DNA of 64,000 nucleotides from a virus (lineage: Duplodnaviria > Caudoviricetes): the IMG/VR virus record IMGVR_UViG_3300028364_000013; one strand, 5' to 3'. Shown here one piece after another: positions 34,148-34,295 of this stretch. The notes beneath the pieces were generated by a model. It ran no database searches. It worked only from the letters and a program-made list of their open reading frames with translations, and was not told where the DNA came from. Positions within the stretch are counted from its first letter, which is position 1; every line of letters starts with the position of its first letter. Made by a program: the position numbers and the translations under genes.

Positions 34148-34295
34148 TGGCACAGGGTGGGCTCGAACCAACGACCTCTGGGTTACGGTGAGTGAATCTT
34201 TTTCACTTTACACATACTACTCGCCTTATTACGTAATTCACGCTTTTGCTCGGTAACCTTATCTCCAGCGCTCTAACCAACTGAGCTACTACGCC
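34148..34295 (-). ncRNA. tRNA body with an insertion of about 75 nt in the anticodon loop
   Basis: GGCGTAG/CTGTGCC-A, canonical D and T arms; CTGG...CCAG encloses a GGTTAC/GTAACC helix. Confidence 0.7.

Follow-up and report, generated by a model that had tools for sequence, protein, structure and literature searches.

A gene of 148 nt at positions 34148–34295 (minus strand; RNA nucleotide 1 is position 34295 and nucleotide 148 is position 34148) has the outline of a tRNA and carries 83 nt where a tRNA model has nine. Is this a decoding tRNA interrupted by an intron, a decaying gene, or an RNA that employs the tRNA shape for some other purpose? The window that we analysed is a stretch of 64,000 nt of DNA belonging to a 117-kb virus record, approximately 53% complete, of a giant lake-water phage. 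Besides a GOLLD RNA, it contains about 20 tRNA hits and a suppressor tRNA (CUA). The 148-nt gene comes last in an array of tRNA-shaped elements packed closely on the minus strand.

The tRNA-like body and its oversized arm

The original prediction, made from the sequence alone, described the body of the gene as canonical, and our searches bear this out. The Rfam tRNA model RF00005 (gathering score 29) matches 34148–34295 (−) with 41.5 bits, complete over model positions 1–71 and with all arms intact; it is in this alignment that 83 nt occupy the place of nine. Our own tRNA model, R1, gives 53.4 bits for the same segment. According to the Rfam alignment, the 5′ body (34269–34295, −) comprises the acceptor 5′ strand, U8, A9, the D arm and nucleotide 26, while the 3′ body (34148–34177, −) consists of the variable loop AGGUC, the T arm, the acceptor 3′ strand and the discriminator A. 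Between them the anticodon-stem 5′ strand CUGG (34265–34268, −) pairs with the 3′ strand CCAG (34178–34181, −). The acceptor stem has 7 bp, including two G–U pairs, and the loop of the T arm reads UUCGAGC. All of the parts of the cloverleaf body of a decoding tRNA (acceptor, D arm, T arm with T-loop and discriminator) are present; CCA is not encoded at the 3′ end. A decoding tRNA would also have a 5-bp anticodon stem, a 7-nt loop, U33 and an anticodon, and in their place this gene has a 4-bp stem with 83 nt between its halves. Default ARAGORN does not call the gene and, when introns are allowed, returns only a contrived tRNA-Leu(AAG) with a mismatched stem.

The hallmarks of a tmRNA are a G3–U70 alanine identity pair, a tag reading frame and pseudoknots. 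This assignment was rejected: ARAGORN reports no tmRNA, pair 3–70 is C–G and the frame in the arm is within chance. A 10-codon frame (AUG ... UAA) does lie in the arm at 34183–34215 (−) with AAGG before its start, and the only change that it shows in the related locus L033 is synonymous; as it is within chance we have not taken it as a gene.

The arm totals 91 nt. Its stem leads into a 7-nt bulge, GAGAUAA (34259–34265, −; AGAUAAG in the other register), and then into a helix-closed insert of 78 nt (34181–34258, −), for which folding predicts a closing helix, GGUUAC/GUAACC, and three hairpins. The 3′ strand of the arm, GUAACCCAG, is paired without a break, to CUG(G) and to (G)GUUAC, so that the arm is best modelled as a 9-bp helix with one 7-nt bulge in its 5′ strand, topped by a three-hairpin junction. 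The closing helix named in the original prediction is thus real, with pair probabilities of 0.94–0.98; of the bulges said to flank it, the one in the 5′ strand exists and the 3′ strand has none. An inner hairpin, AGUGAA/UUCACU, has pair probabilities of 0.8–0.97. Of the three hairpins of the junction, the third (34188–34213) has values of 0.65–0.97 and the other two are weaker (0.4–0.75). The fold is a prediction, and the two copies of the arm, those of the window and of L033, are too nearly identical to show covariation. The insert alone is somewhat more stable than its shuffles (z = −1.9, with six of 200 shuffles as stable), and the whole 148-nt RNA has no extra stability relative to shuffles (z = 0.05).

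Two other features of the arm were considered and set aside. A 10-nt palindrome, AUUACGUAAU (34228–34237, −), as a kissing loop or protein site is not significant, approximately 0.07 being expected by chance in 83 nt; the UUCGAA 'palindromes' of relatives are merely T-loop-like. Paired CNG motifs are cut by P2-OLD (PMC12445682), and the anticodon stem contains such a pair, CUG/CAG (34178–34180 with 34266–34268, −), which is not family-wide and is probably due to chance.

Genomic setting, relatives and the anticodon-less family

Downstream of the array lies a gene (33622–34131, −) assigned to a methyltransferase by a Pfam MTS match with E = 5.5e-4, below the cut-off. Its ATG is 16 nt past the 148-nt gene and there is an in-frame TAG at codon 17. 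We found 51 homologues, and a profile search with the methyltransferase homologues retrieved nine viral and 61 metagenome loci. In most relatives examined, the methyltransferase ATG follows some tRNA-like element by about 11–24 nt, and across relatives the preceding unit may be capped, D-armless, Ile-like or expanded; in four close relatives coding sequence, not a tRNA-like unit, precedes the ATG.

On the other side, a CCA-ended mini-tRNA (34296–34346, −) directly adjoins nucleotide 1 of the gene with no spacer (upstream flank ...GCGGCACCA), and an RNase P cut at the 5′ end of the gene would free this mini-tRNA with a mature CCA. A second CCA-ended mini-tRNA at 34629–34676 (−) is fused in the same manner to the 5′ end of a tRNA look-alike. 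The window further holds a D-armless tRNA-like unit at 34340–34395 (−), conserved in many relatives, and an Ile(GAU)-like tRNA at 35574–35649 (−) with a 9-nt anticodon loop, CUGAUAUUU, which scores 43 bits in Rfam and is missed by ARAGORN. No promoter or terminator was predicted inside the tRNA-like array, overall counts being at shuffle level.

The same 148-nt gene occurs in just one other of the approximately 70 loci, at L033 374–521, where 144 of 148 nt are identical. Its presence in a second genome marks the element as more than a chance occurrence. Three of the four differences fall in the 5′ body and the 3′ body (34148–34177) is 100% identical. The insert is identical at 82 of 83 positions, and there is one change across RNA nucleotides 28–148. 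Two of the 5′-body differences turn G–U and U–G pairs into A–U and C–G, so that acceptor pairing is kept. By comparison, identity falls to 91% for the methyltransferase genes of the two loci, in which 36 of the 170 third positions (21%) differ, and to 84% for a further tRNA-like unit. Nowhere in the 1.8-kb alignment with L033 is conservation higher than in the insert; on our own binomial estimate, a stretch of 83 nt would show no more than one change with a probability of about 1e-7 if it changed at the third-position rate, and of about 0.004 if it changed at the average rate of the coding sequence. The sequence directly upstream of the gene is wholly different in L033, which places a breakpoint at the 5′ body. 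The near-identity of the insert, taken with the pair-keeping acceptor changes, argues for constraint, but the near-identity could also stem from recent recombination or spread within a visibly mosaic array rather than from selection. In L036, the methyltransferase of which is 90% identical, the same body carries at the same spot an 8-bp stem with a UUCG cap.

That capped unit leads to the question of what kind of body this is. Judged by identity, its place is in a phage family of tRNA look-alikes that have no anticodon: it is 88% identical to the capped member L036_611, 87% to L044_2412 and 82% to the unit at 34553–34628 of the window, as against about 77% for Ile-like tRNAs, 75% for the suppressor tRNA (CUA) and 58–65% for the other decoding tRNAs of the window. 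The typical arm in this family is of 20–21 nt, a 7–8-bp stem closed by a tetraloop, and the loops of the capped units are UUCG, GAAA or UUAG. In an alignment of ten distinct capped units, 95% of cells are paired, with changes on both sides in seven of the eight arm pairs and five of the seven acceptor pairs, a level of covariation reached by none of 500 shuffles. We take the capped look-alikes to be a real family of structured RNAs with no anticodon, and one that is apparently undescribed in print for this phage clade.

Arm lengths in the family are 20–21, 40, 46 and 91 nt, and all of the arms are closed; the 40-nt arm, in a paralogue at L033 128–224, starts with AGAUGAAGG as does the arm of the 148-nt gene. 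The latter has the shared body and the array position before the methyltransferase gene, and departs from the typical stem, tetraloop and 20–21-nt length by virtue of its 91 nt. Its arm marks the upper end of the range of lengths, and the gene is not an interrupted decoding tRNA. Since the body is that of the anticodon-less family, the gene would have been no decoding tRNA before the insert arrived. A further family member of 100 nt lies at 3898–3997 (−), upstream of the GOLLD RNA (1995–2421), and has the 46-nt arm with a GUGA cap.

Wider searches added little to this set. A scan of viral contigs for the stem-half pattern with a gap of 60–90 nt returned 21 matches by chance, in coding DNA rich in GC; one unrelated case from the same scan is real, a tRNA-Trp(CCA) gene at L019 2381–2521 (−) in which an insert of 68 nt follows the anticodon loop. 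Scanning viral contigs for the insert core gave only chance matches, and a scan for the junction of mini-tRNA and body gave one match, by chance. In GTDB genomes the methyltransferase profile had no matches and the pattern of the insert 5′ junction had four chance matches. A 701-nt region compared with the phage collection matched only ordinary tRNA parts. The best match to an antisense target in the phage record was 13 nt, the same as for shuffles.

Origin and role of the oversized arm

A group I intron has a catalytic core P3–P9 and a group II intron has domains I–VI, with lengths of roughly 200 nt or more. The insert is of 78–83 nt, and at E ≤ 1 the gene has no match to introns of group I or II, to ribozymes or to any other Rfam family, in keeping with the original prediction that there is no such core; an Rfam intron and ribozyme search of 14 related loci with oversized tRNA genes was likewise without a match. 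A bulge–helix–bulge motif has two 3-nt bulges on opposite strands with a 4-bp helix between them. The loose resemblance to this motif that had been proposed does not hold, as the only bulge, of 7 nt, lies in the 5′ strand, the helix has 6 bp and the 3′ strand is free of bulges. A nested tRNA that RNase P and RNase Z could remove was also rejected: with filters off R1 gives ≤2 bits on the insert, and the hairpin loop is AAAGA, which is not a T-loop. As for enzymes, the 117-kb record (approximately 53% complete) has no match to RtcB (PF01139) and no credible match to a CCA-adding enzyme or a Ro60 gene. A phage splicing endonuclease, for which the original prediction had suggested a search, is not credibly present in the record either, PF01974 reaching only 13.9 bits with a stop inside. 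An RNA ligase gene at 18564–19292 (−; 242 amino acids; PF09414, 82.6 bits) encodes the only enzyme of RNA-repair or splicing type found in the record. No excision restores a normal anticodon arm, again as had been predicted; the best, removal of the 78-nt unit, yields CUG-GAGAUAA-CAG, with a 7-nt loop, GAU in the anticodon position, A33 and a stem of 3 bp. The insert is probably not an intron.

There is nevertheless a link to tRNA-Ile(GAU). The bulge GAGAUAA copies five of the seven nucleotides of the tRNA-Ile(GAU) loop CUGAUAA, and the insert comes right after GAUAA, the same junction as that of inserts in the Ile(GAU) genes of at least five relatives. The arm has the look of one acquired from a tRNA-Ile gene with an intron and joined to a body that has no anticodon. 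The inserts of 66–127 nt after CUGAUAA are found at L025 2416–2558, L028 3534–3715, L075 89–266, L087 1575–1762 and L088 210–408. Their removal restores a perfect 5-bp stem and the CUGAUAA loop, and none of the five has an Rfam intron or ribozyme match. Some Ile(GAU) inserts of related phages contain a T-arm-like hairpin.

The insert has no significant sequence similarity to those of L025, L028 and L075. In local alignments, p ≤ 0.003 was obtained for the insert of L070 and p = 0.013 for that of L088; the L070 arm has a 24-nt motif in common with the present one, and the 8-mer AAGUGAAA is found in six of the 18 inserts, a count that never exceeded four under the null. Three tRNA-shaped genes of 187–205 nt, at L037 2217–2421, L062 4123–4310 and L070 622–808, have arms of 130–150 nt; L037 is a close relative, with a methyltransferase that is 91% identical.

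Two other groups of Ile(GAU)-like genes deserve mention. Those at L025 2565–2728, L039 1787–1949, L040 209–371, L043 2184–2346 and L045 443–598 carry a variable-arm module of about 85 nt, in which the hairpin loop is invariant and contains GCGUGGCCACAA, and the stem varies in sequence with pairing kept in each lineage. By eye the insert seems homologous to this module (GCGUG...GCGAGUAGUA); an nhmmer search with the module misses the insert at E ≤ 10, and the likeness stands only as a lead. The other group lies directly upstream of the methyltransferase gene in L033 (293–368), L036 (530–605), L042, L044, L046, L047, L049 and L054. These genes have the loops CCGAUGU, CAGAUGU and CUGAUGU and are otherwise perfect; C, A or U at position 33 and G and U at positions 37 and 38 are odd for a decoding tRNA.

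We favour the view that the product of the gene is a tRNA mimic or processing handle that is neither spliced nor used in decoding and that bears an additional domain, and would give this an even chance of being correct. The functional appended domain suggested in the original prediction is still the best reading. The acceptor, D and T arms that have been kept are the parts that RNase P, RNase Z and the CCA-adding enzyme would read, and in the family a closed helical arm takes the place of the anticodon loop; in this gene that arm has been exchanged for a larger domain. We infer that host tRNA-end-processing enzymes cut the RNA from a co-transcribed tRNA-like array, and the same processing would release the CCA-ended mini-tRNA upstream and define where the methyltransferase mRNA begins. 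Thereafter the RNA may persist as a stable tRNA mimic that shows its extra domain to a putative protein partner. The occurrence of a tRNA-like unit before the methyltransferase ATG of most close relatives fits the role of a processing handle.

The same arrangement raises a difficulty. As any type of unit can stand before the methyltransferase gene, service as a handle may not depend on the arm, and the insert could be a tolerated passenger, an extra 71 nt gained by recombination and without a function of its own. The unit would then act only as a tRNA-shaped handle for processing or as a decoy, exchangeable with others of its kind and in need of no more than a closed arm of any sort. We consider this unlikely, though a serious contender. 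Capped, D-armless, Ile-like and expanded units are all found before the ATG, arm sequence and length turn over rapidly among close relatives, this particular arm is present in just two of approximately 70 loci, the arrays are visibly mosaic and the fold is only marginally better than those of shuffles. A passenger would not be expected to be the best-conserved part of the 1.8-kb alignment with L033 or to keep a strong closing helix, nor to have short motifs in common with the inserts of other scaffolds (AAGUGAAA in 6/18; L070, p ≤ 0.003). That the gene is a decaying tRNA pseudogene disrupted by junk DNA, as the missing anticodon loop and the absence of a default ARAGORN call might imply, we regard as highly improbable: the four helices of the body are unbroken, pairing in the acceptor survives the changes there, the gene is more conserved than the neighbouring coding sequence and the family to which it belongs covaries.

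Removal of the 78-nt unit as an intervening sequence merits separate consideration. Here protein enzymes would excise it and the phage RNA ligase would rejoin the halves, giving an RNA of about 70 nt resembling tRNA-Ile(GAU) with a short anticodon stem, together with a free 78-nt RNA; the unit might be a mobile relative, lacking an ORF, of the intron-like inserts in the tRNA-Ile genes of relatives. The shared GAUAA junction, the 7-nt loop GAGAUAA with GAU in the anticodon position, the A or C that Ile-like tRNAs of relatives likewise have at position 33 and the presence of the ligase all speak for such an event. Its near-identity in diverged genomes recalls the tRNA introns of Lak phages (PMC6784885) and is compatible with a recent spread in which the flanks were co-converted, and phage tRNAs with a shortened anticodon stem that still decode are on record (PMC12445682). 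Against this, the product would have a stem of 3 bp (or 4 bp with a 6-nt loop) and lack U33, on a body from the anticodon-less and not the Ile family. The insert is neither a bulge–helix–bulge nor tRNA-shaped, neither the endonuclease nor RtcB was found in the record, there is no clean empty site, the arm of L036 being altogether different, and similarity to the L025, L028 and L075 inserts is not significant. On balance we find removal quite doubtful. 

A bolder extension of the tRNA-mimic reading, which we put forward as improbable and speculative, is that the tRNA bodies of huge phages carry RNA cargo, and that the present RNA is a decoy or inhibitor of a host tRNA-targeting nuclease or a docking or regulatory RNA for the methyltransferase. 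The bulge would then display a copy of the tRNA-Ile(GAU) anticodon loop beside a structured domain, and the adjacent, amber-gated methyltransferase would be the target of the docking or regulatory RNA. Were this so, the occurrence of AAGUGAAA and UAGUA in the inserts of other scaffolds would mark a common protein-binding module.

Comparison with known systems

The nearest system in print is that of the 'enigmatic' tRNA introns of Lak megaphages, which are near-identical across diverged genomes (Devoto et al., 2019; PMC6784885) and which we compare by description. Both cases concern oversized tRNA genes of huge phages in which TAG is read otherwise than as a stop, and in both the insert lies in the anticodon region, is unclassified by Rfam and is near-identical between genomes. 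In the Lak genes the tRNA type and anticodon can be assigned once the insert is removed, whereas in the present gene a normal anticodon arm is not obtained by any removal, and its scaffold is of the anticodon-less family.

Closer at hand, the capped look-alikes at 34553–34628 of the window and L036 611–687 resemble the gene in body (82–88% identical), array position, discriminator A and closed arm, and the former also has a CCA-ended mini-tRNA upstream. They differ in having an arm of 20–21 nt with a tetraloop rather than a bulged arm of 91 nt that carries a junction of several hairpins. 

RNAC and RNAD of phage T4 are small stable RNAs transcribed from a tRNA gene cluster, with a role that is unknown (PMC3014915, PMC9697503); as phage small RNAs among tRNA genes they are similar to the present RNA by genomic setting only. 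YrlA, a Y RNA of bacteria and phages, has a tRNA-like module that is recognized by RNase P, by the enzymes of CCA addition and by tRNA-modifying enzymes (PMC4201824). It too is a non-coding RNA in which a long helix replaces one arm of a tRNA-like module. The ends of YrlA form a Ro60-binding helix and its gene lies beside that of Ro60, whereas the ends of the phage RNA form the acceptor stem, the record has no TROVE (Ro60) match and there is no Rfam YrlA match.

Host nucleases attack the anticodon loops, anticodon stems or CCA tails of tRNAs (PMC10264068, PMC11464382, PMC12445682, PMC12851939), and the tRNA genes of phages have come to be regarded as weapons against such tRNA-cutting defences. 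By analogy, it is conceivable that the present RNA acts as a decoy for them. The anti-defence phage tRNAs are, like it, tRNA-shaped phage RNAs with altered anticodon loops or stems; unlike it, they are decoding replacement tRNAs. A conserved RNA of tRNA outline that does not decode, and that bears a folded domain of some size in the place of its anticodon, suggests that the tRNA shape has been put to a second use, that of a stable, self-processing carrier or mimic. The clade has three kinds of oversized tRNA gene, namely those with intron-like inserts after the anticodon loop, those with variable-arm modules and those with cargo arms on anticodon-less bodies. None of the three matches a described RNA family, and together they therefore offer a compact system in which to study how phages make, trim and use such RNAs.
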